From a virus, in IMG/VR virus record IMGVR_UViG_3300045950_000203, positions 1 through 41,805 of that record: DNA of 41,805 bases; one strand, given 5' to 3'. The position numbers were made by a program, and so were the translations under genes. This document shows, piece by piece, positions 3,101 through 41,805 of this stretch. The notes under the pieces are model-generated. The model searched no databases, was not told where the DNA came from, and worked only from the letters and a program-made list of their open reading frames with translations. The first letter of the stretch is position 1, and every line of letters begins with the position of its first letter.

Positions 3101-4129
3101 ACCAGCTCCAACAGCAAGTGGTGATCCATTTCCTCCTGTAAGCCCTGCACCGGCAACACTAGTATGAAGTTTCGCCTCAGTGACAGCTTGAGCGAGAATC
3201 ATAGAGGTTACAATACCGTCGGTTGGGATTGAGACCTCGTTAGCGGTTGCAGCAAGTCCTGCTCCTACTCCTACGGCTAGAGGTTGTCCTCCTCCTCCTG
3301 TAAGTCCTGTTCCTGCAACTGAAGCGGCGAGCTTCGCTTCTGTAACCGCGCTGTCTCGGATATGGTTTGTGGTAACCGCTCGGTTTGCATCCGTTGTTGC
3401 GTCATCCTTGAGTTTCATTGAGTCAACGGAATCGTCAGCTAATTTTGCCGTGGTTACAGCGAGATCTCGAAGATGATTTGTGGTGACGGCACGATTAGCA
3501 TCTGTAACTGCATCATCTTTGAGTTTAGCTGAATCAACTGAGTCGTCAGCTAATTTTGCCGTGGTTACCGCTAAAGCAGCAAGCTCAGTTGTTGTAACTC
3601 CATCCGTGTTGATTTTTAGACCATTTACTCCTTTGGCAAGTGTTGTACCATCTAACTTGACAGTAACCGAATCTGCATCAACTTGGATTCCATTCCCTGC
3701 GCCGACATCCAAAGTAGAACCGGTTAAAGTAAGACCTGCCCCAGCAGTATAACTTCCTGTTGCGCCTACATCTCCTGCAACTCCAAGTTTCCAGTCAGCA
3801 AAAGTTCCCGAACCACCAGTTTGATTGACGTTAAGGGTAACGCTAGTTGCGTCCAATGCAGTAATCTGGCCTTCCATGTAATTCGCAACATTAGCATTAC
3901 TAGCGGCGCGAATCCGCATTCCGACAATCCATCCTCCATTAGTAAAGGCAACAGTAAAAGAAAAAACTTTAGAACCAGTACCAATGGTAAAGGAAGTAGT
4001 GGAATCACGCGTCATTTGAGCATTGATTCCGTTACTTCCAGGAGAACCGGCTGCTCCGGTTGCTCCGGTTGCTCCTGCTGGTCCTGCTGGTCCTGGAGTA
4101 CCTAATTCAACCACAGTTACATCGGCCAT
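1..4129 (-). CDS. Giant modular collagen-like fibre protein, N-terminal part. ATG is at 4129..4127. The frame runs open off the window start and resumes at 41678..41566. The full product is 1413 aa.
   Basis: Hand translation of the minus strand gives MADVTVVELGTPGPAGPAGATGATGAAGSPGSNGINAQ... with no in-frame stop down to base 1. 4129+113 nt = 4242 = 3x1414 codons, ending at TAA 41568..41566. It is missing from the ORF track only because it has no stop inside the window. Confidence 0.85.
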   Translation of the reverse strand, partial: MADVTVVELGTPGPAGPAGATGATGAAGSPGSNGINAQMTRDSTTSFTIGTGSKVFSFTVAFTNGGWIVGMRIRAASNANVANYMEGQITALDATSVTLNVNQTGGSGTFADWKLGVAGDVGATGSYTAGAGLTLTGSTLDVGAGNGIQVDADSVTVKLDGTTLAKGVNGLKINTDGVTTTELAALAVTTAKLADDSVDSAKLKDDAVTDANRAVTTNHLRDLAVTTAKLADDSVDSMKLKDDATTDANRAVTTNHIRDSAVTEAKLAASVAGTGLTGGGGQPLAVGVGAGLAATANEVSIPTDGIVTSMILAQAVTEAKLHTSVAGAGLTGGNGSPLAVGAGDGIAVAANDVAVKLETDAGLQFDAVNKGLEHKLDGTTLSVSATGLKVASAGITTTELANDSVDATKLKDDATVDGNRAVTTDHIRDLAVTSAKLAASAVTAGKIAVGGISASNQFVAGVVDTAALAADSVDATKLKDDATTDANRAVTTDHVRDLAITSAKLAASAVTAGKIATGGISAAGQFAAGVIDTAAIGNAQVTKAKLASDATNLLTDAKRASAYVTVSSTLTTGTAQPLSLADSLFTGKVAGGAINGNGTDGVVAGSFATAAAETGTAATQAGLGSAAASNQPYNSTDFPGQTDITVLLQKADGDDVLLKDVLSTATGADINARVYGYLSYRSDLGVDLKWRLWFYYRRASDGFETPFTPDTSLTNAALAVPEVFTLNNVPVKSGLGIPIVAGQAAAALGPGSVGTTELASQAVTEAKLNTSVAGGGLTGGNGTALAVGAGDGIQVDPDAVTVKLDGTTLAKSPTGLKIAASGVGSLELAAGAVTAGKIAVGGISASNQFLAGVVDTAALANDAVDATKLKDDATTDANRAVTTDHIRDLAVTSAKLAAAAVTAGKIATGGVSASAQFAAGVVDTAALANDAVDATKLKDDATTDANRAVTTDHIRDLAITNAKLAASAVSDAKIDATGITTRSKLPAALAYEDEANVFTGATQEVKDLVLTDQDATPVGARRLRNIDGIIKATDGTQAEGRYISKASLELLSKTELPAAVAYEDEANVFTGATNEFKDVVFTDQDATPVGARRLRNIDGILKATDGTQTEGRYISKTSLELLTKTELPAAVAYEDEANNFTGAVNEFKDVELNDQDATPIADRRLRTIDGIIKATDTAQAEGRYISRLSLELLTKTELPAAVAYEDESNNFTGTVNEFKDVELNDQDASPVADRRLRTIDGIIQATDTAQAQGRYISRDSVQGPNGDIFKSMNPEEASLFFAAPAVLGTIGTGDDRVRTLDFADGSTLSAEVSFVAPATSVTFRIIWTASVTTGNCRLGVSIKGSGDYTAAYPAPTSVDSAAPGTANNAKNTDFTL
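340..1186 (-). repeat. Four tandem repeats of about 213 nt (71 aa) inside the fibre gene.
   Basis: The unit ELPAAVAYEDEANxFTGAxNEFKDVxxxDQDAxPxxxRRLRxIDGIxxATDxxQxxGRYISxxSLELLxKT is read four times. DNA landmarks (g/a)aaat(a/g)tatc recur at about 361, 574, 786 and 1001. Confidence 0.85.
1235..1660 (-). repeat. Two tandem repeats of about 204 nt (68 aa) inside the fibre gene. This is pair A, related to pair B at 2520..2925.
   Basis: The unit is AVDATKLKDDATTDANRAVTTDHIRDLAxTxAKLAAxAVTAGKIAxGGxSAxxQFxAGVVDTAALAN. gtc(a/g)cggatatgatc recurs at 1262 and 1466. Confidence 0.8.
2520..2925 (-). repeat. Two tandem 68-aa repeats (pair B), paralogous to 1235..1660. Shorter 38-aa relatives lie at about 3355..3580.
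   Basis: The same amino-acid unit is read twice. gtcgcgaacatggtc is at 2639 and gatcgcgaatatggtc at 2841. Confidence 0.8.
4028..4102 (-). repeat. Collagen-like Gly-X-Y x8 tract at the fibre N-terminus.
   Basis: GTP GPA GPA GAT GAT GAA GSP GSN G read on the minus strand. Confidence 0.9.
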
Positions 4130-21582: not shown

Positions 21583-21652
21583 AAAAGAAGAGATTGTCGA
21601 TCGTAGCTCATTTCTAAAACGCAACTTATTGAAAAATAAAGAGAACCGAAAA

Positions 21653-22474
21653 ATGAATACCATAGAGCATGTTTTATCTGTGGATGATAAGCTATTTCGT
21701 CGAGAAACAGGAGCATGGGGGAAACGAATTTATGTCGATGAAGCGGGAAGAGAGTATGCAAACATCACAGGAATTTTGAAGGTGATTCCTAACCCGGCAT
21801 TATCGAATTGGAAAGCTAAAAATGAGAAAAATGCTTGCTGGAAAGCAGCGTGGAAAGTTTCTCAAAATTCTCATGTTGAAACTGAAGAGCAATTTTTTCA
21901 GCATTGCGAATCTGAATTTAAGAAAGAAAATATAGAACAAGAAGGGCAAAATGCAGCGACAATCGGTTTTATGATTCATGAAACAATCGAGCAAGAAATT
22001 CAGATCATGATGAGTCGGCAACTTGAGCTTCTAATTCAAACGCCTTCGTTGTTATCGGAGATTGATATAGCTTTAGATCACTTCCGAGAATTTGTAAAAA
22101 CTTTCAAACTTGATTTTATTTGTGCAGAGAGAGTTGTTTATTCAGAGAGGCAGCCTCGATTTGCCGGAACCATTGATGCAATAGCAAACATAAATGGAAT
22201 TGCTACACTCATAGACTGGAAAACGAGTAAGGCAATTTATCCTGAGTATTGGATTCAACTTGCGGCTTACCATAAAGCCTTTTTTAGGACCACGATGGTT
22301 GAACTGCCTCAAGTAGCGGTTGTCCTTATTCCTAAAGTTTCCTCTAAAGTCCCAGAAATTCAAATCTTAAAGGCTCACAGTTTAGAGAGATATTATCGAA
22401 CTTTTGAAGCGGCCTTTGAACTTTATCTATGGCAGAATTCCGACTTCTCTAGTTTAGCTCCTCATAGCACTTGA
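21653..22474 (+). CDS. PD-(D/E)xK (RecB/Cas4-like) exonuclease.
   Basis: GTIDAIANINGIATLIDWKTSK (D...DxK) and QLAAY motifs are present. The ORF track starts at TTG 21629, but ATG 21653 is more plausible. Confidence 0.65.
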   Translation: MNTIEHVLSVDDKLFRRETGAWGKRIYVDEAGREYANITGILKVIPNPALSNWKAKNEKNACWKAAWKVSQNSHVETEEQFFQHCESEFKKENIEQEGQNAATIGFMIHETIEQEIQIMMSRQLELLIQTPSLLSEIDIALDHFREFVKTFKLDFICAERVVYSERQPRFAGTIDAIANINGIATLIDWKTSKAIYPEYWIQLAAYHKAFFRTTMVELPQVAVVLIPKVSSKVPEIQILKAHSLERYYRTFEAAFELYLWQNSDFSSLAPHST

Positions 22475-22499
22475 CTTGTATTACAATTTGTAATATGAT
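22471..22499 (+). promoter_or_regulatory. sigma70-type promoter with an embedded TTGTATTACAA dyad.
   Basis: TTGACT 22471-76, 17-nt spacer containing TTGTATTACAA (22476-86), TATGAT 22494-99. Confidence 0.65.
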
Positions 22500-22522
22500 G
22501 GTATTCTATTTTGGAGGTAAAC

Positions 22523-25219
22523 ATGTCTATGCTCGAAGCTGCTCTATTCTATCTTGGCTGTGGTATTTCGATCATTCCTTGTCAGTATAAAGAAAAGCAT
22601 CCTCTTCTTACCTGGAATTCTTATCGTGAGAGATTTCCTACAAAGGAAGAGTTAAAAAAATGGTTTCCTAAAAAGATCGAGAGAAATTTAGCTGCGATTA
22701 TGGGGAAAATCTCGGGAAACATGGAGGCCCTTGATATTGATGAAAAACATGAAGAAAATTTATCTCAGGAGTTTTTAAAGCGAGCTTCGGAATATGGACT
22801 TGATGAACTCATTGAGCGAATTCCTAGACAAAGAACTCCTACAGGGGGATTCCATTTAGTTTACCGCTGCAATACGATTGCTGGATCACAGAAGCTTGCA
22901 TTAAACGAGAAAAAAGAGGTCATCATCGAGACCCGAGGAGAAGGAGGATATATCATCATTTCTCCTTCCTTCGAATATAAATGGGAAAACAAAGAGCTAC
23001 TTCATGCAATTCCAACGATAACAGAAGAAGAACGGGATTCTTTGCTCTCTTTAGCTCGCAGTTTTAATAAGTTATCTTCAAACTATAATCCCCCCATTCC
23101 AGAGCAACAAAAAGCCGGTCCCGGAACAGTTTTCAATGAGAAAGGAAACTGGAAGGACATCCTTGAATCGCACGGATGGACTTTCGTTTTTAAGAGAAAG
23201 GGAATAGAATATCTTCGGCGACCAGGAAAGGATAGAGGAATTTCAGCTACTATTAACTATGATGGAAAAAATCTACTCCATGTGTTTTCCACCAATGCCT
23301 TTCCATTTGAGAACAAAAACTACAATAAATTCGCTGCTTATACTCTTCTAAACTTTCAGGGAAACTTTTCCAATGCGGCTAAAGATCTTTTTCAGAAGGG
23401 ATATATTCCCGATAAACCCTCGAAGCTTCGATTAGTTAATGAATCCGAAGATTTTCGTCAAATCAAAGATTTTATCAAGGATGCTCCTGAAGAGGATTTA
23501 TATTGTCCTTCAAACTGGAAAATTCAAGAAGGTGGAATTTTCCGAGAAGAAATTTCGATCGATGCCACAGGAGCTAAATCAATTCAATCACAAAGAATCT
23601 GCTTTCTTCCAGTCTATATCACCAAACGAATTTATGACATCGACACAAATGAAGAGAAAGTAGAAATTTCCTGGTATAAAGACGACTTATGGCATCAACA
23701 AGTTATCTCTCGATTAACTCTAGCTTCTAGCAATTCGATTATTTCTCTATCAAATCTTGGAATTCCGATTAACTCAAATAACGCCAAGATGATGATTAAA
23801 TTCTTTGAGGCTTTTGAATGTCTCAATTTAGATCAAATTCCAATAAAGCGTGCAACTGGCATTTTTGGGTGGCATGGATCTAATCTATTTATGTGGGGAA
23901 ATCAACTCATTGAAAAGAGTCATATCTGGATGGAAGATCCACCCTTGATTTTTTCAGGTAAAGATGCAGGAGAAGAGCAAGTCGCTAAGGCACTATATCT
24001 GCATGGAACCTTTGAAGAATGGTCCACCGTTTTAGAATTGATTCAGAACTATCCGCGGGTTATCTTTGGTCTTTACGCCTCCTTGGCTCCTCCCTTGATA
24101 AAAATTCTGAAAGCTCCTAATTTTGTGGTCAACTGGAGCTACATTACTTCGGCTGGTAAGACTTCACTCTTACGGCTTGCTGCTTCCGTTTGGGGCAACC
24201 CAGATGAAAAGTCGGCAGCTAGTCTCATAAAGTCATGGGATACTACTCGAATCGGACTAGAGAGAACGGCAACATTGCTAAACGATCTTCCGATTTTTTT
24301 AGATGATACCAAGCAAGTTCCTAGTTCCGAGCTTCTATCCTCTACTATCTACAAAATTTCAGCCGGAATTGGAAGAATTCGAGGTTCACCCAAGGGCACT
24401 CAAGTTATGGGAACTTGGAACTCGATCCTCCTGACTAACGGTGAATATCCTATAAACTCTAATAGCTCAGATGGAGGAGCCTTTGTGCGAACTATCGAAA
24501 TGTGGGGAAATCCTTGGGAAGAATCTAATAGATATATCGCAAAACTGATCGATACTATCTGGACAACTATATCTCGAAATTACGGGCACTTAGGTCCTAT
24601 ATTCATTCAGATTTTGATGAAACTTGAACCACAATGGAAAGAGTTAAAAAATATTTATGAAAAATCGATAACCAAGTTTTTAGCGATTGAAACAAACTCA
24701 CCGGCTGAATTCCGAATGGCAGCCTATTTTGCTTTACTAGACGTAACCGCAGCATTAGCCGATGCCCATTTTAAATTCCCCTGGAGTGGAGAGAAAGTAT
24801 TGGAGAAACTATGGAAACAGGTGGCAAAGGATACTGCCTATGCTGCCGACAAAGCTCAAGAATTCTTAGTTCAAACTCTCGAATGGGCTCACATTCATGA
24901 ATCGGAATTTTATGAACGCGCTCGCCTCGATAGTAAAGGAAATCCTATACCTCCTGTAAATGGATGGTTAGGTAGTTGGGAAAGGGACAACAAAAATAAC
25001 GGGTTCAGATGGGAATTTATCGGAATATTTCCTAACCGATTAAAAGCCTTTATCACTAGCTTAGGTGGAAACTATAACGCAACCATAAAAATCTGGAAAG
25101 AACGAGGATGGCTACTCGAAGATGAAATTCGCCATTTTCGTAAACAGATTAGAATCGGAAATGAACGATGGGATGTATTAGCGATTCCTCGTAACAAAAT
25201 CGAGGAAATAAGAGGATAA
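22523..25219 (+). CDS. Primase-polymerase (PrimPol N-domain) fused to a DUF927/SF3-type helicase.
   Basis: ALFYLGCGISIIPCQ, LDIDEKH and TPTGGFHLVY are prim-pol motifs. TSAGKTS is a Walker A and PIFLDD a Walker B. GGAGG lies 5 nt before ATG 22523, and the track's TTG 22511 overlaps this SD. Confidence 0.75.
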   Translation: MSMLEAALFYLGCGISIIPCQYKEKHPLLTWNSYRERFPTKEELKKWFPKKIERNLAAIMGKISGNMEALDIDEKHEENLSQEFLKRASEYGLDELIERIPRQRTPTGGFHLVYRCNTIAGSQKLALNEKKEVIIETRGEGGYIIISPSFEYKWENKELLHAIPTITEEERDSLLSLARSFNKLSSNYNPPIPEQQKAGPGTVFNEKGNWKDILESHGWTFVFKRKGIEYLRRPGKDRGISATINYDGKNLLHVFSTNAFPFENKNYNKFAAYTLLNFQGNFSNAAKDLFQKGYIPDKPSKLRLVNESEDFRQIKDFIKDAPEEDLYCPSNWKIQEGGIFREEISIDATGAKSIQSQRICFLPVYITKRIYDIDTNEEKVEISWYKDDLWHQQVISRLTLASSNSIISLSNLGIPINSNNAKMMIKFFEAFECLNLDQIPIKRATGIFGWHGSNLFMWGNQLIEKSHIWMEDPPLIFSGKDAGEEQVAKALYLHGTFEEWSTVLELIQNYPRVIFGLYASLAPPLIKILKAPNFVVNWSYITSAGKTSLLRLAASVWGNPDEKSAASLIKSWDTTRIGLERTATLLNDLPIFLDDTKQVPSSELLSSTIYKISAGIGRIRGSPKGTQVMGTWNSILLTNGEYPINSNSSDGGAFVRTIEMWGNPWEESNRYIAKLIDTIWTTISRNYGHLGPIFIQILMKLEPQWKELKNIYEKSITKFLAIETNSPAEFRMAAYFALLDVTAALADAHFKFPWSGEKVLEKLWKQVAKDTAYAADKAQEFLVQTLEWAHIHESEFYERARLDSKGNPIPPVNGWLGSWERDNKNNGFRWEFIGIFPNRLKAFITSLGGNYNATIKIWKERGWLLEDEIRHFRKQIRIGNERWDVLAIPRNKIEEIRG

Positions 25220-25589: not shown

Positions 25590-25976
25590 ATGAAAGCCTT
25601 TATTATCGAAGATGATATAAACTTCGCTAACTCTCTAGCAGAGAAACTAGGCAAACTCAGCTTTCAAATTGAAATCTTCGATTCTAGCGAAAAAGCAGAA
25701 GATGCTTTGTCTAATGAAATCCCAGATTTAATCACTCTTGATATAGGTCTTCCTGGAAAATCCGGTCTTGAACTTTTAAAATCTATTCGAGAAAATCCTA
25801 GAACTGAAAATATTTATGTTATCATTATCACTTGTATGGAATCTCAAATCCTTCGGATTATCGCTAAAGAATTGGGCGTTACCAGTTTCCTCTTGAAACC
25901 CTCTCTTTCCACTTGTTTAGATCTTGAAAAAACTATAAAATATCTATATGGACTCCGAGACGAACAAACTTCTTGA
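25590..25976 (+). CDS. Stand-alone CheY-like response-regulator receiver domain.
   Basis: All canonical residues are present: IIEDD (acidic pair), ITLDIGLPG (phospho-acceptor Asp), IIITC (Thr), LLKP (Lys). There is no output domain. Confidence 0.8.
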   Translation: MKAFIIEDDINFANSLAEKLGKLSFQIEIFDSSEKAEDALSNEIPDLITLDIGLPGKSGLELLKSIRENPRTENIYVIIITCMESQILRIIAKELGVTSFLLKPSLSTCLDLEKTIKYLYGLRDEQTS

Positions 25977-28476: not shown

Positions 28477-28540
28477 TCCGGACTTGGAACCGGACCTCGT
28501 TTCACGAGGGGCCTTACAGGGGTTGCCCCCTGTCCTCGGT
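28477..28540 (-). other. Structured 3' element X (minus strand) after gene 28541..28855.
   Basis: On the minus strand it reads GGACAG, then CAGGGG-GCAA-CCCCTG (28517-32, GNRA loop), CCTCG-tgaaa-CGAGG, and CCGGTTCCAAGTCCGG (28479-93). Confidence 0.5.
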
Positions 28541-29208: not shown

Positions 29209-29418
29209 CTAAATATCGGCGATCGTCACAAGTCGGTCGATTTTCACAGCTAGTTTGTGCCAACGCCGCGCTAGTCCATGATCTTGCCAGTTAACTTCAA
29301 CATGCTGCCATTTATCAAAACAGACTTGTGCCAGCGCTTCAAGCACTGACGAAATACCATTTCGATCGATCAATATTTCAAGCTCTTCTTCCAATTTTTT
29401 CATATCTTCCTGATTCAT
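29209..29418 (-). CDS. Hypothetical small protein (69 aa).
   Basis: An AAGGAG SD precedes ATG 29418 (MNQEDMKKLEEELEILIDRNG...). The upstream part of the track ORF overlaps the promoter. Confidence 0.5.
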   Translation of the reverse strand: MNQEDMKKLEEELEILIDRNGISSVLEALAQVCFDKWQHVEVNWQDHGLARRWHKLAVKIDRLVTIADI

Positions 29419-29461
29419 AGAAAACTCCTTTAAACTATCCTGTTTTACTATTTCTATGGAC

Positions 29462-29490
29462 AGTATAATATGATTGTAATACAATGTCAA
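29462..29490 (-). promoter_or_regulatory. Near-consensus sigma70 promoter (leftward) with an embedded TTGTATTACAA dyad.
   Basis: On the minus strand: TTGACA (29490-85), a 17-nt spacer containing TTGTATTACAA (29484-74), TATACT (29467-62). Confidence 0.7.
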
Positions 29491-29607
29491 GGAAAAAAAG
29501 CAGGCAAGAAGATTTTTTTTGATTTTCAGAAATAGCAGGAAATTAGGGACTCTTCCGGGACACAACAAAAAATACACCGATCAACGATGTCCGTCTGAAA
29601 TGAACTC

Positions 29608-29636
29608 TTGACATTTCTGCTCTACGGATATATACT
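29608..29636 (+). promoter_or_regulatory. Near-consensus sigma70 promoter (rightward) with no ORF downstream.
   Basis: TTGACA 29608-13, 17-nt spacer, TATACT 29631-36. Confidence 0.7.
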
Positions 29637-29664
29637 GGTATTAGAGGAAAGAGACTTATCGATC

Positions 29665-29869
29665 GGCCGGCCGGTAGAACTAGTGGGGCTATCTACCAAC
29701 CGGTCGGTAGATAGCCCGCGGCAGTTTTACCGCAATGGTGTGGTAAATTTACCACAGTGGCAGTTCTGCCACATATAGCAATTTCGCCACATCTATGTGG
29801 TAATTTCGCCACAGTTTTAGCTCCGACCGACCGGTCGGTAGATAATTTGATGTTAAATCGTTTAACATC
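29665..29869. promoter_or_regulatory. Dense dyad-symmetry/iteron array (candidate operators, origin or ncRNA template).
   Basis: It contains a 32-bp palindrome (29686-29717) and GTGG-N8-CCAC dyads at 29740-55, 29757-72 and 29797-812. It also contains CCACATCTATGTGG (29787-800), ACCGGTCGGTAGATA twice (29699-713, 29830-44) and GATGTTAAA-tcg-TTTAACATC (29849-69). Confidence 0.7.
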
Positions 29870-29919
29870 AAAACATTCCCGATGAGAAATCGGCAATATC
29901 GTGTCCAATTTTAAGCTTT

Positions 29920-30351
29920 TTACTCGGATTCTGAGAATTCTTCGACTAAATCTACGATTTCCTGGTCTTTTTTCAGATCATCCATGAACGATTTCTGAAG
30001 TAGTTGGCGAGCTAAAGCTTGACGCGCTTCTGGATATGGACCAAGTACTTCCATCAATGTGCCGATCATCTTATCCCAGTTAACGTTCTGCGTTTCCCGA
30101 GTATGATGTGAAATCTGGGTAGGTTTGCCTAGAATACGATCCAGCAGCTCATGAATCGCAGGAAGCGAACCTCCTCGCGCTTGTCGAACCAGCTCACGTA
30201 CTACAGCAATCATATCCTCCAATGACACCGCATAATAAAATGCCTCACGAAACTTCGAGATGTCTACTTTCTTCGCTTTATGCGTTAAATAGGGCACCGC
30301 CGGATTCTCAATCGACGGTAGAGATCTAAAGTGTGGTTTTTTCCTACTCAT
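29920..30351 (-). CDS. Hypothetical helical protein, possibly DNA-binding and possibly leaderless.
   Basis: 143 aa from ATG 30351 (MSRKKPHFRS...). A TATAAT -10 lies only 6 nt upstream. The segment ...ARGGSLPAIHELLDRILGKPTQ resembles a motif seen in small phage DNA-binding or small-terminase-like proteins. Confidence 0.5.
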   Translation of the reverse strand: MSRKKPHFRSLPSIENPAVPYLTHKAKKVDISKFREAFYYAVSLEDMIAVVRELVRQARGGSLPAIHELLDRILGKPTQISHHTRETQNVNWDKMIGTLMEVLGPYPEARQALARQLLQKSFMDDLKKDQEIVDLVEEFSESE

Positions 30352-30357
30352 ACACCC

Positions 30358-30386
30358 ATTATAGCATAAAATTATCTGTTTAACAA
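30358..30386 (-). promoter_or_regulatory. sigma70-type promoter abutting the start codon.
   Basis: On the minus strand: TTGTTA (30386-81), 17-nt spacer, TATAAT (30363-58). ATG is at 30351. Confidence 0.55.
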
Positions 30387-30394
30387 ATGACAAA

Positions 30395-30415
30395 TGTGTT
30401 CAATTTTTGAACACA
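30395..30415. promoter_or_regulatory. Perfect 9-bp-arm palindrome upstream of that promoter.
   Basis: TGTGTTCAA-ttt-TTGAACACA. Confidence 0.7.
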
Positions 30416-30642
30416 TCACCTGTGAAAATATTTTCATATTGAATAAAACAGAAAAATGGTAAACTATTACCCACAAATATATAATTATTTAATACTAATT
30501 ATATCTACCTAACTGAAGAACGACATTCAGCTATTAACTGTATAATATTAAAGAACTTTAGAAGTGTTGGATAACCCTACACTTTTGTCACTTTATACCG
30601 CAAAGTGGAAAAACCCTAATAATTTCAACTACTTACGCGATT

Positions 30643-31324
30643 ATGTGACAATGTGACAGTGAAACCTCGCGGGTTGGCATGGAGGTAGGCGGGATCATTG
30701 AGGAATTTGTTAAAAATTGTATATATCTGGTATTATTCAGGAATTTGGTCGTGGAAATTGGAAATGTGACAATGTGACAAAATGATTTTAACAGATAATC
30801 AAGTAATATCAGATAGATGAGTGTGTTTTTCGGTTTCAAAAAATTGTCACATTGGAGGGAAGGTATATTGCGCGCGTATGCGCGCGTATACTATGTACTG
30901 TCAGTAGATACTATTCACGCGCGCGCAGGTAAAAGTATATGGTCCTATGTCTTCGATGTGACAGTTTTTTGAATCTCAACTACTTTGGAGATGGGTGATT
31001 TTTAACAGGAATTTTCATTTTAGGGTTTGTCACATTGTCACATTTTCGATTTCCGTGGCCGGAATCGTGAATAATTTCGGGTAGTTACGAAAACGCTTTA
31101 AAAGCATAGGGTTACTGGTCGGTTGGGGTTCAGATGGAAATCAATTGAAGGTGTTTAAATCGTAAGTTATTGAAGTAGAAGGGTAAAAAAAATGTGACAA
31201 TGTGACAGGCCGGAAATTGAGGGTTTTGGGGGCGGAATTTTTTACAATTAGAGTATAATTGTTAGAGTTGGAGAAGAAAGGATAAGGAAGTCAATGAATT
31301 AGGGGCGTGAAAAAAAATGTGACA
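30643..31324. repeat. Dispersed ATGTGACA iterons (four tandem doublets plus three singles, in both orientations).
   Basis: ATGTGACAATGTGACA occurs at 30643-58, 30764-79 and 31192-207, and inverted at 31028-43. Singles occur at 30845-52 (inverted), 30956-63 and 31317-24. Most are preceded by an A-run. Confidence 0.85.
30838..30970. repeat. Dyad element of about 133 bp with alternating purine-pyrimidine GC cores.
   Basis: The outer arms are AAAAAATTGTCACAT and ATGTGACAGTTTTTT. The inner elements are TGCGCGCGTATGCGCGCGTATA (30869-90, 22 nt strictly alternating Py-Pu) and CACGCGCGCGCA (30916-27). The central element is TACTGtCAGTA. Confidence 0.8.
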
Positions 31325-31644
31325 AAATTTAATGCGATGGATAGGGGGGGATTGGGGCTTATTGAGATTTTAGGTTATGGGGACAGAGGAAGTGGCGGAT
31401 TTTGGTGTTGGTTTTTTGGGGGTTTTGGGGTGACATTGATTTAAAGGGGTCAAATTTGACCGCTATTGCACGATCGTTTTTATGATGGAGGAAGAGGCTA
31501 TCAGAGAGGTGATCGTTTAATCTGGAGGCTTTTTAGGGCATAGAAATTAGGAATAGTTGATTAGTGGTTGGGTTTTAAGAAGGGGGTATCAAGGATCTTC
31601 ATCGTCGAATTCAGAAGATCTTTCGTTTGGATGGATGTGGTAAA

Positions 31645-31881
31645 TCAGTGATTGCTTTCATCATTGTTTATTACTCCTTTTTGGCATTCTTTTTTTTCGA
31701 GTTGACGGCCGTGGTGAATACCAAGTTGGACGCCGAGCGCGAAGACGATTGTTATTGTAAGCAGGATCATTAGAAAGCGGTTTAGAGAGTCGGTTATCCA
31801 GAATTCCCAGTTTTCGGGATTAGGATATTTTGGTTTCCACAGGTGCATCGGTTCTATTCTCCTTTTTTTCTTCGAGGGCAT
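31645..31881 (-). CDS. Small membrane protein.
   Basis: 78 aa with one clear TM segment (FLMILLTITIVFALGVQLGI). Confidence 0.5.
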   Translation of the reverse strand: MPSKKKRRIEPMHLWKPKYPNPENWEFWITDSLNRFLMILLTITIVFALGVQLGIHHGRQLEKKECQKGVINNDESNH

Positions 31882-33140: not shown

Positions 33141-33335
33141 TTAGGCTGTCAGATAATCGGACAGAATTGTGCGTATAATGGAGGATTTAGTCCGGTTGTT
33201 CTTTTTTGCAATTTGACTTACGAGAAGATGGAGGTCTTTGGGTAAACGCACACAGATTGTTTTTCCTTCTTTCATGGTTCCGTAATCAATGTTATCGAAG
33301 CTGATTTCAGATTTTCGATTTTCTTTTTCTTCCAT
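33141..33335 (-). CDS. Ribbon-helix-helix (CopG/Arc-type) transcriptional regulator.
   Basis: KTICVRLPKDLHLLVSQIAKKNNRTKSSIIRTILSDYL shows the beta-strand, helix, helix pattern. An AAGGAG SD is present. The gene is divergent from the recombination operon. Confidence 0.7.
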   Translation of the reverse strand: MEEKENRKSEISFDNIDYGTMKEGKTICVRLPKDLHLLVSQIAKKNNRTKSSIIRTILSDYLTA

Positions 33336-33354: not shown

Positions 33355-33421
33355 AAGATAATACATTTTTTTTACATTGTCAATATTTTTCTCTTGACAA
33401 TTGTAATATAATGTGTATATT
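33355..33421. promoter_or_regulatory. Overlapping divergent promoters (switch region).
   Basis: Leftward: TTGACA (33383-78) / 17 nt / TATCTT (33360-55). Rightward: TTGACA 33394-99 / 16 nt / TATATT 33416-21. A TTGTAATATAA dyad-like motif lies in the spacer. Confidence 0.55.
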
Positions 33422-36274: not shown

Positions 36275-37140
36275 AATCAAAGAAAGGAATTATTATGAAA
36301 ACTTGGCATGATAATTCATCCTTAAAAGATCATTTTATTACTCAAATGCAATCTCATTATGATGCAGATGAATTGGTTAAAGGGTATTATTGGGAAAATG
36401 GGAAAGGTTGTGCAATCGGATGTGTTACGCATAGCGGAAAAAATCCGCATTCAGAATTTGAAAAACTAACAGGGATTCCTCGGATAATTGTAAGGATTGT
36501 AGATTTAATTTTTGAGCGACTTTCAAACGAAGAAGCGAAGAAGTGGCCTTTGCAATTTTTGAAGGCGGTGCCAGTTGGTGTTAATCCGGTATTCTGGTGG
36601 CCGAAGTTTTCACTTTGGCTTTTAATAGATCCTAAAGAAGGTATTATCCGGTTTGCCAAAACTAACCGTACAGAGGTAATAAATCAGGTAGCCAATCTTT
36701 ATAAACGACAGATTTTAGGAGAGCGAATTTCTCAAGAGGATTGGCGAAATTCCGCCGCCGCCGCCGCCTACGCCGCCGCCTACGCCGCCGCCTACGCCGC
36801 CGCCGACGCCGCCGCCTACGCCGCCGCCTACGCCGCCGCCTACGCCGCCGCCTACGCCTCCTACGCCGACGACGCCTCCTACGCCGACGACGCCTACGCC
36901 GCCGCCTACGCCGCCGCCTACGCCGCCGATGCCGCCGCCGCCTACGCCGCCGCCTACGCCGCCGCCTACGCCGCCGACGCCGCCGACGCCGCCGCCTACG
37001 CCGCCGCCGCCTACGCCGCCGCCTACGCCGCCGACGCCGACGCTAAAACTGCGACATATCAAAAAGCATATCAAAAAATGAGAGATAAACTATTAGAGAT
37101 TGTAGGAAAAACTAAGGAATGCAATAATGAAATCAGATAA
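36271..37140 (+). CDS. Hypothetical protein: globular Cys/Trp-containing N-domain plus a low-complexity region of about 95 aa, (AAAY)n/(AAD)n.
   Basis: 289-aa ORF with ATGA overlap with the holin gene. The repeat is in frame and flanked by normal sequence. Confidence 0.7.
   Translation: MKSKKGIIMKTWHDNSSLKDHFITQMQSHYDADELVKGYYWENGKGCAIGCVTHSGKNPHSEFEKLTGIPRIIVRIVDLIFERLSNEEAKKWPLQFLKAVPVGVNPVFWWPKFSLWLLIDPKEGIIRFAKTNRTEVINQVANLYKRQILGERISQEDWRNSAAAAAYAAAYAAAYAAADAAAYAAAYAAAYAAAYASYADDASYADDAYAAAYAAAYAADAAAAYAAAYAAAYAADAADAAAYAAAAYAAAYAADADAKTATYQKAYQKMRDKLLEIVGKTKECNNEIR
36752..37043 (+). repeat. Tandem 12-nt repeat array, GCCGCCGCCTAC and variants.
   Basis: Read directly. About 24 units with GAC/GAT/TCC variants. 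It is very GC-rich, and all frames on both strands are open. Confidence 0.9.
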
Positions 37141-37228
37141 AAAAACATGGGATAATTTAAGCCCAGAATTAAAGAAAATTCTCACTCCAGATCGCGATAA
37201 ACCTATAAGTCAACTACCCGTCCCCTAA
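37127..37228 (+). CDS. 33-codon ORF, possibly the truncated N-terminus of a duplicated copy of the upstream gene.
   Basis: MKSDKKTWDNLSPELKKILTPDRDKPISQLPVP* can be compared with MKSKKGIIMKTWHDNSSLKDHFI of 36271..37140. Its stop sits in the loop of hairpin 37217-38. Confidence 0.3.
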   Translation: MKSDKKTWDNLSPELKKILTPDRDKPISQLPVP

Positions 37229-37590
37229 AGGGGACGGGCTTGTCCGGAAGCAATCCTGAACAGGCCCCACGTTGACCAGCTTCAGCCAGGGCCTTCGGGC
37301 TACCGGGCTACGTTATCTGAGTCAGGACACCCTGGGGTGCTTCGCCAGCTCCAGGCACTTTGTGTCGTCCGGCATTAAACAGGTGTAAGGGGTTTAGGCC
37401 AGTGTGCCGGATGTAAAAAGCTCGGATAACATTGGCGAGGAGAGACTCCGATCTCATTCGGAGCGTTACCAGCCCCTTACGGGGACCGCTTAGAGGGGAG
37501 GGCCTTCGGGCTCTCCCCTTGTGAGCGGATGCTAAAAAGGCGCTCCTCCCCTTCCCTCTCATAGAAAGGGTGTCCGCGCCTGGGAGGATT
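37212..37590 (+). ncRNA. Candidate structured non-coding RNA of unknown class.
   Basis: A GC-rich island with no ORF of 60 aa or more on the + strand. It has at least six strong hairpins, including two C(UUCG)G hairpins, and G-T wobbles compatible only with the + strand. See findings. Confidence 0.5.
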
Positions 37591-38031: not shown

Positions 38032-38667
38032 TTACCACAGATCCCAATTAAAATTCTGCTCTCTGTCTAAAGTAGAAATAATCGGAATTTCATTTCGAGA
38101 AGGACGGCTATGAATATTCCCCCCCATTTTGAATTGTTCTGCATACCAAAGAGGCAAAGCTAGAGCAATCACCATGTCGTCATGTTTACCTCGATCCGCT
38201 TCATAAGAATCCTCACCTTGTGTTCCAATTTTGACTCTGAAACTGATAAGTTGATTTCTTAGAGTTCTAGCTAAATCCATTTGTCCTGCAATTTTTAGCC
38301 GGCCTGATTCTAGTACAATTGCTAAAGCGCCAACTAAATCACGCTTTGGTAGGCGATAGTCAACTAAATTCACTTCGACAACATTGTAACCTCCCGTGAT
38401 TTGAACAGAAATTACAGAGAGTTTTTCTCGAAGATAATCAATAATCGGAGTTCCGATTCCTGTTGCATCTACCACAAGAGTATGATTTTCTTTGAATGGT
38501 TCTTTGTTTAGACATTCAAACAGAAAACTTACAATCTGTGGATAGGGAGTATGTAAAGGAAAACTGCGGATATTCCTCAATAGATATAGATCTGATGTCT
38601 GCTCGATTAAAGTCAATGTAGATGGATCTTTTGTTTTTCCTAGATCTAATCCGAATAGGAATCTCAA
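38032..38667 (-). CDS. terL: Large terminase, nuclease (RNase H-like) domain as a separate ORF.
   Basis: LFGLDLGKTKDPSTLTLIE supplies the first catalytic Asp and HDDMVIALALPLWY the last Asp. The start is TTG 38667, overlapping the TGA of the ATPase ORF. Confidence 0.75.
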   Translation of the reverse strand: MRFLFGLDLGKTKDPSTLTLIEQTSDLYLLRNIRSFPLHTPYPQIVSFLFECLNKEPFKENHTLVVDATGIGTPIIDYLREKLSVISVQITGGYNVVEVNLVDYRLPKRDLVGALAIVLESGRLKIAGQMDLARTLRNQLISFRVKIGTQGEDSYEADRGKHDDMVIALALPLWYAEQFKMGGNIHSRPSRNEIPIISTLDREQNFNWDLW

Positions 38668-39419
38668 TTGAAAAACTCCATCGGTTCTATAGAATTGTCA
38701 AAGGCTCTTTCAATCGCAGTCAATGAAAAAAACTGATCTTCACTTTCAATAAACTCGCATAAAAAGTCCTGACGAAAAGCCCAATCTGACATGCGATCGC
38801 GTAAATTTTCAAGATAATTCTGATCGATTCGAGGATTTTGATAAGCATTTATTAAAATTTTTTTCCAGGTTTCTTTTGAATTCCATTCTTGCCAAAAAAT
38901 TCCTCTTTTTCCTGCCGGTGTAGAAAGTAAAATCAGTTTTCCTTTTGAAACTGCTAACATTGGAAGAACTGAATAATAAAGGTTATCTTCGATTCGAGCT
39001 GCTTCATCAATGATCAGAAGCGAAACTGATGAATATCCTCGAATCGTTTCCTCTTTACCAGGTAAACAAATGATCCTTGATCCATTTTCACATTCTAATT
39101 TAAGTGCTGATTCTTCCGTAACTGGAAGTTGAACTTCCTTCAAAATCGCATAAAACTGACGAACTTTCCTAAAAAGTTCCTGACTCTGACGCAAACTAGG
39201 AGATAAAATTAGAGTAAGCGCGTGAGAGCGAGATATTGTGTTATGAAATCCAGCTAAGGCAGCTATTGTACTTTTTCCTGATTGTCGAGCGCAATTTAAG
39301 ATAATCTTTGGAGCCTGAGAAAGTAGAACTTCTTCTTGCCACGGATCGAGCTTTAATCCGGCTAACTCTGCTAATAGTGTAGGATCAAGAGCAGTTCCGA
39401 TTTTAAGATTAGGATTCAT
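38664..39419 (-). CDS. terL: Large terminase, ATPase domain as a separate ORF.
   Basis: Walker A is CARQSGKST, Walker B is LLIIDEAA, and the coupling motif is LLSTP. The product is 251 aa. Confidence 0.8.
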   Translation of the reverse strand: MNPNLKIGTALDPTLLAELAGLKLDPWQEEVLLSQAPKIILNCARQSGKSTIAALAGFHNTISRSHALTLILSPSLRQSQELFRKVRQFYAILKEVQLPVTEESALKLECENGSRIICLPGKEETIRGYSSVSLLIIDEAARIEDNLYYSVLPMLAVSKGKLILLSTPAGKRGIFWQEWNSKETWKKILINAYQNPRIDQNYLENLRDRMSDWAFRQDFLCEFIESEDQFFSLTAIERAFDNSIEPMEFFN

Positions 39420-40713
39420 AGTCTTCTGGTAGTTTCATCTGACTCTCATAAATTCCTTGCTTTTCAGTTCTAGGAATTTCTTCAATATCCTCTGGATTAT
39501 ATCCATATTTTCTTAGATAATACTGAGTCGAAAAGCGACGCTGTGTTGCTCCTTTTTCTCGACTCCATCCTTCAATGACCTTTGTATCTTTAAGAAGAGT
39601 TTCATATTGATTTTCTCGATATAAACAATAAATCGGAGGATAAGGATCATCAAAATTTAGTTCATTTATTTTAGCGATTAACTCATTTCCTGCATTCTCT
39701 GCCATCGCTTTAATAGCTAATTCTGCTAGGTTCATTCCCTCCTGGTGAGTTTTTGCGGCTCCATAGGAGCTTGATTCTGCCCCCCGCATTTCAACGGTAA
39801 GCGTTTGACCTAGCAGAGCCTTTGAAATTTCGTTGTTCCAAAATATTTCATATCGCTCGTAAATATCGGAACTTTTACCGCTACTTTCATGAAAGTCGAT
39901 TGAAGAATCATTCGGCACAGTTCCGACTCCATCTTGACAGAGCTTGTCAAGTGCATCCAAAATAGCGGAAATCTCTCGTTCTCCAAGTCCCCTCGGATGT
40001 TTAGCGATCGGCCAGGGCATTCCATATTTTTCAACAAATTTTATCCACCATTTTGCTCCGTTCTTTTTTGCAGATACCGGCCAGAAAACCAGAGATAAGA
40101 GTGGAAATCCTTGAGGACGTTCATAAGTAGACATATGTTGAATGACAAGAAAGTTTTCATCTGGTATCGAAATACCAGGAAATGGATTTTCTTTTGTTTT
40201 GAATAAAATCCGATTATCAGGAGCCCAATTAAACCACCACGGAGGTTTAGCTTCAATAGCTTTTAAATTTTTTGCCTTATTGGAACCTGGTAACCACCAT
40301 CCTCCTTCAGAAATCCAATTAATTTCTAAGGGTTGATAACCCCACAATTTTGCATCAACAATAAAAGAAACAAAATGAAAATTATTGATATTTCTAAAAC
40401 TGGTTTCAATTAGTTTTAATGTCTTCTTTTTTGTTAATTGCTGTGGTTCAATTCGATATGAATAGGATTGAATTCCTCGTTTAAGTTGACTGACACAAGC
40501 AAAAACATGAGGGTCCGTTAGAAGTTCACGATAGACCTTCATGTCCTTATTAAGTTTTTTTAAGATGTCGTCAGGATTAGGTAGATAACCAAAAGCAGTT
40601 AAATAAAAATCTTCAGAAATTTCGCGGGAAGCTATTTGACGGGAAAGAGAACGAGAGGGGGCCTCAAAATGATAACTTTCATGCTCATTTAACCAGAGTG
40701 TTAATTGACTCAT
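39409..40713 (-). CDS. Portal protein (Mu gp29/DUF935-like).
   Basis: 434 aa. LLTDPHVFACVSQLKRGI, WWIKFVEKYGMPWPIAK and NNEISKALLGQTLT match the DUF935 pattern. Confidence 0.75.
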   Translation of the reverse strand: MSQLTLWLNEHESYHFEAPSRSLSRQIASREISEDFYLTAFGYLPNPDDILKKLNKDMKVYRELLTDPHVFACVSQLKRGIQSYSYRIEPQQLTKKKTLKLIETSFRNINNFHFVSFIVDAKLWGYQPLEINWISEGGWWLPGSNKAKNLKAIEAKPPWWFNWAPDNRILFKTKENPFPGISIPDENFLVIQHMSTYERPQGFPLLSLVFWPVSAKKNGAKWWIKFVEKYGMPWPIAKHPRGLGEREISAILDALDKLCQDGVGTVPNDSSIDFHESSGKSSDIYERYEIFWNNEISKALLGQTLTVEMRGAESSSYGAAKTHQEGMNLAELAIKAMAENAGNELIAKINELNFDDPYPPIYCLYRENQYETLLKDTKVIEGWSREKGATQRRFSTQYYLRKYGYNPEDIEEIPRTEKQGIYESQMKLPEDYES

Positions 40714-41565: not shown

Positions 41566-41805
41566 TTAGACGAATACAACAAACATCATTACATTCGCTG
41601 TTGCCGCCATTGTATCGTTGGCGTGACCTCCTTCTCGTCCAATTCGCACTTTGATTAGGTTTCCTACGGTTAAACTGCTCAAAGTAAAATCTGTATTTTT
41701 GGCGTTATTCGCTGTGCCTGGTGCAGCAGAATCCACCGAAGTAGGAGCTGGATAGGCAGCGGTATAATCTCCGCTTCCCTTAATACTTACGCCTAGTCGG
41801 CAGTT
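41566..41805 (-). CDS. C-terminal end of the same fibre gene (...NTDFTLSSLTVGNLIKVRIGREGGHANDTMAATANVMMFVVFV*). 41679..41805 duplicates 1..127.
   Basis: The frame is continuous with the 1..4129 ORF across the circular junction. The TAA stop is at 41568..41566. Confidence 0.85.
   Translation of the reverse strand, partial: NCRLGVSIKGSGDYTAAYPAPTSVDSAAPGTANNAKNTDFTLSSLTVGNLIKVRIGREGGHANDTMAATANVMMFVVFV
41679..41805. repeat. Second copy of the 127-bp terminal duplication (= 1..127).
   Basis: Same as above. Confidence 0.95.

Follow-up and report, generated by a model that had tools for sequence, protein, structure and literature searches.

A promoter-fed array of palindromic dyads in an orphan phage genome, most likely a protein-DNA assembly site and tentatively part of a replication origin

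The virus record IMGVR_UViG_3300045950_000203 of IMG/VR was analysed at its full length of 41,805 nucleotides, hereafter called the window, and contains between positions 29657 and 29872 an array of palindromes into which a near-consensus promoter is directed. The results indicate that this array is most likely a double-stranded-DNA assembly site for sequence-specific proteins and not primarily an RNA gene. As to its function, the reading we favor, tentatively and at a probability of about 40%, is that of one iteron set within a hub at 29.45-31.4 kb that would combine a transcription-coupled origin with early control. The proposed hub also holds the back-to-back early promoters, the most AT-rich block of the genome and an array of the octamer ATGTGACA. 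A preliminary description of the region had offered two models, a lambda-like iteron origin that needs transcriptional activation and an RNA-based immunity or antisense regulator. The features of the array and of the two promoters beside it are as follows.

29462-29490, minus strand: leftward twin promoter with identical hexamers, 11/12, 17-nt spacer
29608-29636, plus strand: rightward sigma-70-type promoter TTGACA-17-TATACT, 11/12, predicted start near 29643
29665-29678, plus strand: degenerate copy, GGCCGGCCGGTAGA, of the A motif (CCGGYCGGTAGA), 68% identity
29686-29717: 32-bp near-perfect palindrome of two inverted A motifs, centre 29701.5
29718-29733: dyad unit 1, GCGGCAGTTTTACCGC, GCGG-N8-CCGC
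29740-29755: dyad unit 2, GTGGTAAATTTACCAC
29757-29772: dyad unit 3, GTGGCAGTTCTGCCAC
29775-29790: dyad unit 4, ATAGCAATTTCGCCAC, left arm decayed
29797-29812: dyad unit 5, GTGGTAATTTCGCCAC
29826-29844, plus strand: right-hand A motif, ACCGACCGGTCGGTAGATA, which holds the palindrome CCGACCGGTCGG (29827-29838) and mirrors the left palindrome across the array
29846-29857 and 29861-29872: perfect palindrome with 12-bp arms, TTTGATGTTAAA-tcg-TTTAACATCAAA, extending the hairpin described previously at 29849-29869
29879-29893, minus strand: terminator-like hairpin, CCGATTTCTCATCGG, with a partial U run, past the stop codon of the leftward gene

The palindromic motifs listed in the preliminary description were all located where it had placed them. 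Fifteen of the 16 arm pairs of the 32-bp palindrome are complementary (16-nt arms, 94%), and the 15-mer ACCGGTCGGTAGATA occurs at 29699 and 29830 together with an inverted copy at 29690 that carries one mismatch, compared with an expectation of 0.01. The three GTGG-N8-CCAC dyads recognized earlier (29740, 29757 and 29797) are the only ones in 41.8 kb and the CCAC-N6-GTGG motif at 29787 is the sole copy in the genome; the count of three was nevertheless too low, as there are five units when 29718-29733 and the half-degenerate 29775-29790 are added. The five units, the list and spacing of which were read by eye from the sequence, follow the consensus G[T/C]GG-N8-CC[A/G]C from 29718 to 29812, most with TGTGG and CCACA flanks (16-18 bp), and their centres are spaced 22, 17, 18 and 22 bp apart, or approximately two helical turns. 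The outer TGTGG and CCACA are kept among the units while the A/T-rich cores vary. The half-sites occur in two forms, GTGGTAA and GTGGC(A/G)(G/A), which are paired both symmetrically and asymmetrically so that the copies are without consistent hairpin-preserving covariation. A further sequence of the array, CCGGTCGGTAGA, is named apart from the TGTGG-N8-CCACA units as a possible protein target.

The A motifs bracket the five units to form one element of ~190 bp with approximate two-fold symmetry. The self-complementarity score of 29657-29845 was 22, while 300 genomic control segments scored -19±12.5 with a maximum of 18. The 27-bp palindrome at 29846-29872 abuts the array within a 34-bp stretch (29844-29877) of 79% AT, and may serve the leftward gene as a terminator, act in unwinding or binding, or both.

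The dominance of dyad symmetry in the transcribed stretch, remarked upon in the preliminary description, was evident from RNA folding. The plus strand of 29643-29900 folded with -107 kcal/mol (z = -8.8 versus shuffles) and the array ranked second in structure among 640 genome windows of 260 nt, only a HEARO RNA ranking higher. The minus strand folded better (z = -10.9). A manual count of G-T versus A-C mismatches in the dyads gave 2:3 between the strands, that is, no strand bias, and several of the dyads are perfect palindromes without a loop. The better fold of the minus strand, the mismatch split and the loopless palindromes are in accord with dimeric proteins reading duplex DNA rather than with a strand-specific RNA.

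Both promoters were borne out as previously described, the leftward one being equally strong, with -35 boxes placed back-to-back 118 bp apart. Sites scoring at least 11/12 number six in the genome versus 1.9±1.1 in shuffles. Sites with an exact TTGACA cluster at intergenic operon starts (21554, 29490, 29608, 33121, 33383 and 33394), and the promoter at 29608 is very probably real since such sites mark the starts of evident early operons. The leftward promoter drives a 69-aa gene (29418-29209), which has AGGAG as its ribosome-binding site, together with the operon that follows. Downstream of the promoter at 29608 no credible open reading frame (ORF) was found on the plus strand, in agreement with the preliminary description; the only frames are one of 56 aa with a TTG start on the -35 box and one of 42 aa with a GTG start and no ribosome-binding site. 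A transcript from 29608 is still likely to be made, running antisense into the next gene. The spacer of the leftward promoter (29490) contains a perfect 13-bp palindrome, ATTGTAATACAAT (29474-29486), and that of the RecT promoter (33394) the related ACAATTGTAAT (33395-33415). The two are possibly a shared operator, for example for a ribbon-helix-helix (RHH) protein encoded by the phage, and are not in the 29608 promoter.

Exact matches in other genomes were few. The 15-mer ACCGGTCGGTAGATA had nine single, chance-like matches in IMG/VR, one of which was inspected and is unrelated DNA. The exact 18-mer TGTGGTAAATTTACCACA gave 21 single hits in GTDB genomes, all but one of them without nearby dyads and chance-like. 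The exception (L054), in a Phycisphaerales metagenome-assembled genome (CAWBEY010000001.1, 4990-5216), has five TGTGG-N8-CCACA dyads within 200 bp, the inner arms of which vary by copy with self-complementarity kept save for at most one central mismatch; one copy is more degenerate. This cluster is preceded by a perfect 18-bp palindrome, CTACGTCAATTGACGTAG, and lies between two tyrosine-integrase-like pseudogene fragments.

A gapped two-dyad pattern scanned against IMG/VR was found at 88 loci. Approximately 25 of these have the 18-bp sequence TGTGGCGTTTCYACCACA twice, 23 bp apart, at nucleotides 355-395 of a gene encoding 264-271 aa that was identified as Pfam Phage_rep_O in all six cases tested. 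The dyads in the Phage_rep_O genes are followed by an A-rich tract, CAATAAAGACAGTAAAGACAAT, and a palindrome (9895-9935 in L075; likewise in L066, L071, L088, L102, L127 and ~20 more). The origin of lambda lies inside gene O, and the paired dyads are apparently the origin of a large lambda-O-type phage group. Unit 5 (29796-29813) read on the other strand is TGTGGCGAAATTACCACA, both 7-nt half-sites of which are common to the O-gene iterons. In another group of five unrelated contigs (L081 group), GGTGTGGTAAATTTACCACA and a second dyad occur in an intergenic, ORF-poor setting with the dyad GTGACAAAATTTGTCAC 50 bp away; the 244-aa gene of L081 had no PDB homologue and no homologue in the window. 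Locus L114 was considered as a parallel linked to a small-terminase (TerS) gene and rejected, as the gene in the TerS position is not DUF5681 and the supposed dyads resemble a terminator. No protein of the window had a homologue near the examined dyad sites, L054 included. Judged from sequence, the dyads are patterned like iterons or operators to which dimeric proteins would bind, and for an origin there is a clear precedent.

The context of the array is also of the origin type, with a consensus promoter aimed into it and nothing to express. In the proposed mechanism, dimers of a phage DNA-binding protein would occupy the in-phase dyads and wrap the DNA, candidate binders being the Prim-Pol/DUF927 primase-helicase, through its winged-helix C-terminus (residues ~780-902), and the small helix-turn-helix (HTH) protein of the neighbouring gene. 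Transcription from 29608 would cross the complex towards the AT-rich block, aiding opening or priming, and a transcript antisense to the convergent gene would be a by-product. In lambda, transcription from PR helps to activate the origin. The segment from 29.45 to 31.8 kb is almost free of ORFs except for that convergent gene, and has the following features to the right of the array.

29920-30351, minus strand: gene for a 143-aa DUF5681-family protein, convergent with the rightward promoter
30425-30504: 80-bp window with the highest AT content in the genome (85%), candidate DNA-unwinding element
30643-31324, both orientations: eleven exact copies of ATGTGACA (0.8 expected) in an ORF-poor 1.4 kb, laid out as four tandem doublets (30643, 30764 and 31192 on the plus strand; 31028-31043 on the minus strand) and three single copies

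The AT-rich 80-mer is just upstream of the promoter of the 143-aa gene and 550 bp from the array, across a gene. The cumulative GC skew has a local minimum at 30.2-30.5 kb, and together the minimum and the 80-mer are 0.4-0.7 kb from the array. The octamer array is a candidate origin core or a candidate array for an RHH-type binder. Modules of ~60 nt are repeated inverted within the octamer region (30719-30781 and 31026-31088). In the middle of it, at 30869-30930, are alternating purine-pyrimidine GC tracts, with tgcgcgcgta twice and then cacgcgcgcgcagg, that look prone to Z-DNA. The plus strand is strongly G-rich at 31100-31700 (GC skew from +0.45 to +0.68) and includes runs of G, among them gatagggggggattggggc and ttgggggttttgggg. 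The tract follows the 29608 promoter on the same strand and is a candidate for R-loop or G-quadruplex formation.

Several observations weigh against the array being an origin. Phage_rep_O was absent in Pfam scans of the window proteins, and when a profile of six O proteins was compared with each ORF of the window the highest hhalign probability was 1.5%. The array and the primase-helicase gene are 4.4 kb apart, and only a weak 16-nt pair occurs downstream of the gene. The half-site match of unit 5 is by our own estimate not significant alone because many comparisons were made, and other matches of the two-dyad scan lie between divergent small genes, as operators do, with one terminator-like. 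No close relatives of the phage were found, homologues of the 143-aa protein being at most 43% and of the portal 40% identical. The eleven copies of ATGTGACA beside the AT-rich block are at least as good an origin core, and with this more canonical core at hand the array at 29657-29872 may be an accessory or unrelated site. Finally, the position of the array 50-260 bp past the end of a probable small-terminase gene favors a packaging site. The lambda-like iteron origin is the better supported of the two models offered earlier, at the level of the grammar only; an O-type initiator is lacking and the octamers form a rival core.

The case for a packaging site depends on the convergent gene at 29920-30351, which had been described as that of a possibly leaderless regulator. 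The start does look leaderless, with an extended -10 (TGcTATAAT) ending 6 nt before the ATG, but the product is a DUF5681-family protein of the kind encoded in small-terminase position and no generic regulator. A search of 5.8 billion proteins with the 143-aa sequence returned only itself; HMMER, run exhaustively over 1.84 billion representatives, brought up 99 weak relatives. Pfam DUF5681 was identified in 44 of 66 aligned relatives and phrog_38011 in 33. The three closest homologues are 33-35% identical over the full-length alignment, to 43% locally, and are encoded immediately upstream of or overlapping a large terminase (TerL) that is split like that of the window and 45-50% identical to it. 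Four more homologues are ahead of probable TerL genes, the adjacency being found at L012, L013, L014, L018 and L032-L034. In Thermus phage Riverbug and Meiothermus phage MMP17, with TerL 47% identical to that of the window, the product of the gene directly upstream of TerL has a C-terminal PYPEAR block, LEALAPYPEARAAL, in common with the 143-aa protein. Because its closest relatives directly precede a homologous split large terminase, the 143-aa protein is probably, on this sequence evidence, the TerS of the phage, here unlinked from terL; no other TerS candidate was present beside TerL in the window. An alignment-based AF2 model (pLDDT 83) showed an HTH-like three-helix bundle and a long helix, and the single-sequence model was poor (pLDDT 57). 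Foldseek with the model returned no PDB hit and no solved TerS, and in BFVD gave weak DUF5681 matches and 'terminase small subunit' entries at E 5-10. A profile search against PDB sequences and an NCBIfam search were both empty, and tblastn of family members against annotated phages gave nothing. The regions beside terS at L012-L014 were without comparable repeats.

The strongest rival explanation, albeit an unlikely one, is that the array is a pac site, less likely a cos site, for the adjacent small terminase, in which a TerS ring would assemble on the phased dyads and TerL would cut nearby to start headful packaging. Sites of this kind are usually in or beside terS, as in P22, SPP1, P1 and the cosB R-repeats of lambda. 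The array adjoins the terS-like gene just 3' of it, the near edge being about 50-75 bp beyond the stop codon, the DUF5681 and phrog_38011 relatives of the product precede TerL, and the Mu-type portal and T4-type terminase suggest headful packaging. The identity of TerS is nonetheless derived from gene position only, with no solved TerS found by Foldseek, one subgroup of homologues from phages with a T7-like portal is not linked to a terminase, and the authors of the Riverbug study assign TerS to another gene. Five-unit symmetric arrays are rare among known pac sites. A consensus promoter aimed at a pac site is also without an obvious role, and the ATGTGACA array upstream of the gene is equally possible as the TerS site.

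It is less probable again that a phage regulator bound to the array, as to an operator, a roadblock or a centromere-like site, gates the convergent promoters (29608 versus 30386), or that the array is a partition or silencing site. Candidate regulators are encoded in the genome, namely the RHH protein, a ParB-like HTH protein and the 143-aa HTH protein. The first of these, a small Arc/CopG-like protein encoded on the minus strand at 33141-33335, is a nearby protein of repressor type and corrects the earlier statement that no repressor of the cI type is evident there. Clustered palindromes of 16-18 bp look like parS or operator sites; five unrelated contigs have the near-identical dyad pair GGTGTGGTAAATTTACCACA between genes, in a region that resembles a control region, and the scan matches between divergent small genes are of the same character. 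In its apparently leaderless start the 143-aa gene is reminiscent of lambda cI. However, the sites are at +20 to +230 from the promoter and not over it, the dyad half-sites are not repeated at other early promoters, and no integrase was identified among the ORFs tested. As for a ParABS centromere, the ParB-like protein is present but a ParA-type Walker A motif was absent from all frames of the whole genome.

Similarly doubtful is the view that the region mainly yields an RNA, whether a structured small one of ~175-230 nt from the 29608 promoter or a longer read-through, which would regulate the 143-aa gene by antisense or immunity action or would sequester proteins as a sponge. The strong and very probably real promoter, the absence of an ORF and the very stable predicted fold are consistent with such a product, as are a weak hairpin followed by GUUUU at 29796-29818 and a possible read-through antisense to 29920-30351 and then into the G-rich, ORF-free tract; the genome also holds other structured RNAs, twister-P5 and HEARO. 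On the other side, the opposite strand folds better, and the loopless perfect palindromes, like the conservation of the outer half-sites, are in keeping with a protein that reads duplex DNA. Scanned against Rfam at E ≤ 10, the segment 29400-30000 gave noise only (such as miRNA and snoRNA models), with no C4-type antisense RNA and no CRISPR repeat family. The weak hairpin apart, no convincing intrinsic terminator was found on the plus strand, and the repeated motifs of the array have no other copies and no complementary target elsewhere in the genome. With no Rfam match, no plus-strand terminator and a symmetry that is not strand-specific, the proposal of an RNA regulator of the P4 CI, P1 c4 or lambda oop type was left unsupported.

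The least probable view joins replication and packaging in one control centre, in which the leaderless, unlinked terS would lie between two iteron arrays, a G-rich non-coding transcript from the consensus promoter would run through the first array, antisense over terS and into the AT-rich block, opening or priming the origin by an R-loop and delaying packaging to a late stage of infection, and the dyads would be a shared phage 'iteron word' for unrelated initiators.

Other candidates were rejected. The likeness of UCUAC/GUAGA to a Cas12a-like repeat or RNA anti-CRISPR is a 6-mer only, with no CRISPR direct-repeat family matched. A type III toxin-antitoxin (ToxI-like) or CRISPR-like repeat RNA was dismissed as the next gene is convergent, the period of 17-22 nt irregular and no family matched. 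There was no reverse transcriptase for a retron, neither protelomerase nor integrase among the scanned ORFs for a telomere-resolution site (telRL) or attP, and no co-oriented operon for nut/put antitermination. The HIP1 sequence GCGATCGC occurs once and is not enriched, which does not accord with HIP1 or REP-type host repeats. A DnaA-box cluster, suggested by a likeness of TTnnCCACA to TTATCCACA, was also dropped.

The window is an entire JGI contig, the ends of which overlap by 127 nt (1-127 = 41679-41805), indicating a closed genome of ~41.7 kb. The gene content is that of a myovirus-type phage, with structural genes for tail sheath, tape measure and baseplate, further replication and recombination genes for RecT and a VRR-NUC nuclease, and genes for a holin and the ParB-like protein (N-terminal domain and HTH). 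Genes referred to by position are as follows.

21629-25219: exonuclease and Prim-Pol/DUF927 primase-helicase, the latter at 22511-25219
33141-33335, minus strand: Arc/CopG-like RHH protein
38032-39419, minus strand: large terminase in two ORFs, T4-type
39409-40713, minus strand: Mu-type portal

The DUF927 helicase matches the SaPI 'pathogenicity island protein' 8TCH, and the C-terminal HTH match is weak. The portal gene precedes terL, and the terS-like gene is 7.7 kb from terL. The terminase is split into an ATPase ORF of 251 aa and a nuclease ORF of 211 aa with a 4-nt overlap; since the two closest metagenomic relatives (L012 and L014) have the same split, the arrangement is conserved and no artefact of assembly. 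Neither an integrase nor a protelomerase was found among the scanned ORFs, three structural-region ORFs (218-292 aa) being outside the Pfam scan, so that any lysogenic cycle is hypothetical. Comparison of 29400-30400 with 50,697 phage records by blastn gave no match, and IMG/VR scans with the 143-aa protein, RecT and a 220-aa protein gave no alignable relative. The closest portal proteins are only 40% identical, and the closest RecT relatives (65-68% identity) belong to otherwise unrelated phages that have RecT as the sole gene in common.

Additional features were observed elsewhere in the genome. The GC-rich first 4.4 kb contain tandem repeats of 204-213 nt (359-1648 and 3354-3568) and are probably part of a giant repetitive tail-fibre gene on the minus strand that spans the contig junction and was not listable by the ORF tool. 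A twister ribozyme of type P5 at 28478-28540 on the minus strand (40.1 bits, exceeding the Rfam gathering threshold) directly follows a 104-aa zinc-ribbon ORF of the leftward early operon, in DNA that is GC-rich and strongly C-skewed on the plus strand (26.0-28.0 kb, skew to -0.63). A full-length HEARO (IscB-associated omega) RNA is located at 37209-37449 on the plus strand (138.7 bits) and is the most structured region of the genome; no IscB-sized ORF was found downstream, and the 289-aa ORF ahead of it has ~23 copies of the 12-nt repeat CGCCGCCGCCTA (36759-37033). Downstream of the primase-helicase gene is that of a stand-alone response-regulator receiver domain of 128 aa (25590-25976, plus strand; Pfam Response_reg E 1e-17). 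Palindromes of 6 bp are depleted genome-wide, the observed versus expected counts being 0 versus 10.9 for CTCGAG, 1 versus 18 for GATATC, 0 versus 7.8 for GAGCTC, 0 versus 7.6 for CTGCAG, 1 versus 12 for ATTAAT and 2 versus 15 for TTCGAA, which suggests a host rich in restriction systems.

The array has features in common with several known systems. The five dyad units of 16-18 bp, placed approximately two helical turns apart, compare with the three or more iterons of ~18 bp by which a lambda-type origin is recognized. As in that type, the A/T cores should bend the DNA in phase. On one side is the 34-bp AT-rich stretch with its palindrome, a possible counterpart of the unwinding region of such origins, towards which a strong promoter reads; moreover, the TGTGG-N8-CCACA grammar is found at the lambda-equivalent spot in the Phage_rep_O genes of ~25 viral contigs. 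Unlike lambda, the array is outside any gene, homologues of O and P are replaced by the Prim-Pol/DUF927 helicase, a second palindromic motif brackets the units to give an overall two-fold symmetry, and the largest AT-rich block is on the far side of a gene, at a distance of 550 bp. In class (Prim-Pol, DUF927 and a weak C-terminal HTH) the replication protein belongs with those of P4 and SaPIs, the origins of which carry short iterons recognized by the C-terminal domain of the primase-helicase Rep and usually located close to its gene, and P4 has two repeat clusters, ori and crr, as this phage has two separate non-coding ones. The two clusters here differ in motif, however, and neither abuts the rep gene (4.4 kb).

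Lambda cosB (R1-R3), SPP1 pac (pacL and pacR) and the hexamers of P1 pac are clusters of short repeats by the small-terminase gene, an arrangement that the array resembles, and its GC-rich palindromes could mark a cleavage region. It differs from these in that the terS-like gene is 7.7 kb from terL and in that the array is 3' of the gene, strongly symmetric and fed by a promoter. A constitutive-looking promoter and a structured non-coding leader convergent with a gene are reminiscent of P4 CI, P1/P7 c4, lambda oop and P22 sar, from which the array differs by the absence of an Rfam match, of a short-RNA terminator and of target repeats of the seqA/seqC type, and by structure that is equally strong on the untranscribed strand. 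Overall, it is an element of a known kind in an unusual layout, namely lambda-like iterons without an O protein in an orphan phage with an unlinked terS between two repeat arrays.

For annotation, the results teach that a perfect promoter reading into palindromes without an ORF is more likely to be a protein-DNA machine than a small RNA gene. Whether an origin or a packaging site, the array is a compact and clonable test object of 300 bp. Were it a pac site, the uncharacterized DUF5681 putative small terminases would have their first proposed recognition site, and a terS apart from terL would be documented. If the units are origin iterons, they would pair lambda-style iterons with a Prim-Pol/DUF927 helicase instead of an O protein, in a phage without known relatives, and so add to the combinations in which initiator classes and origin grammars are known to occur.

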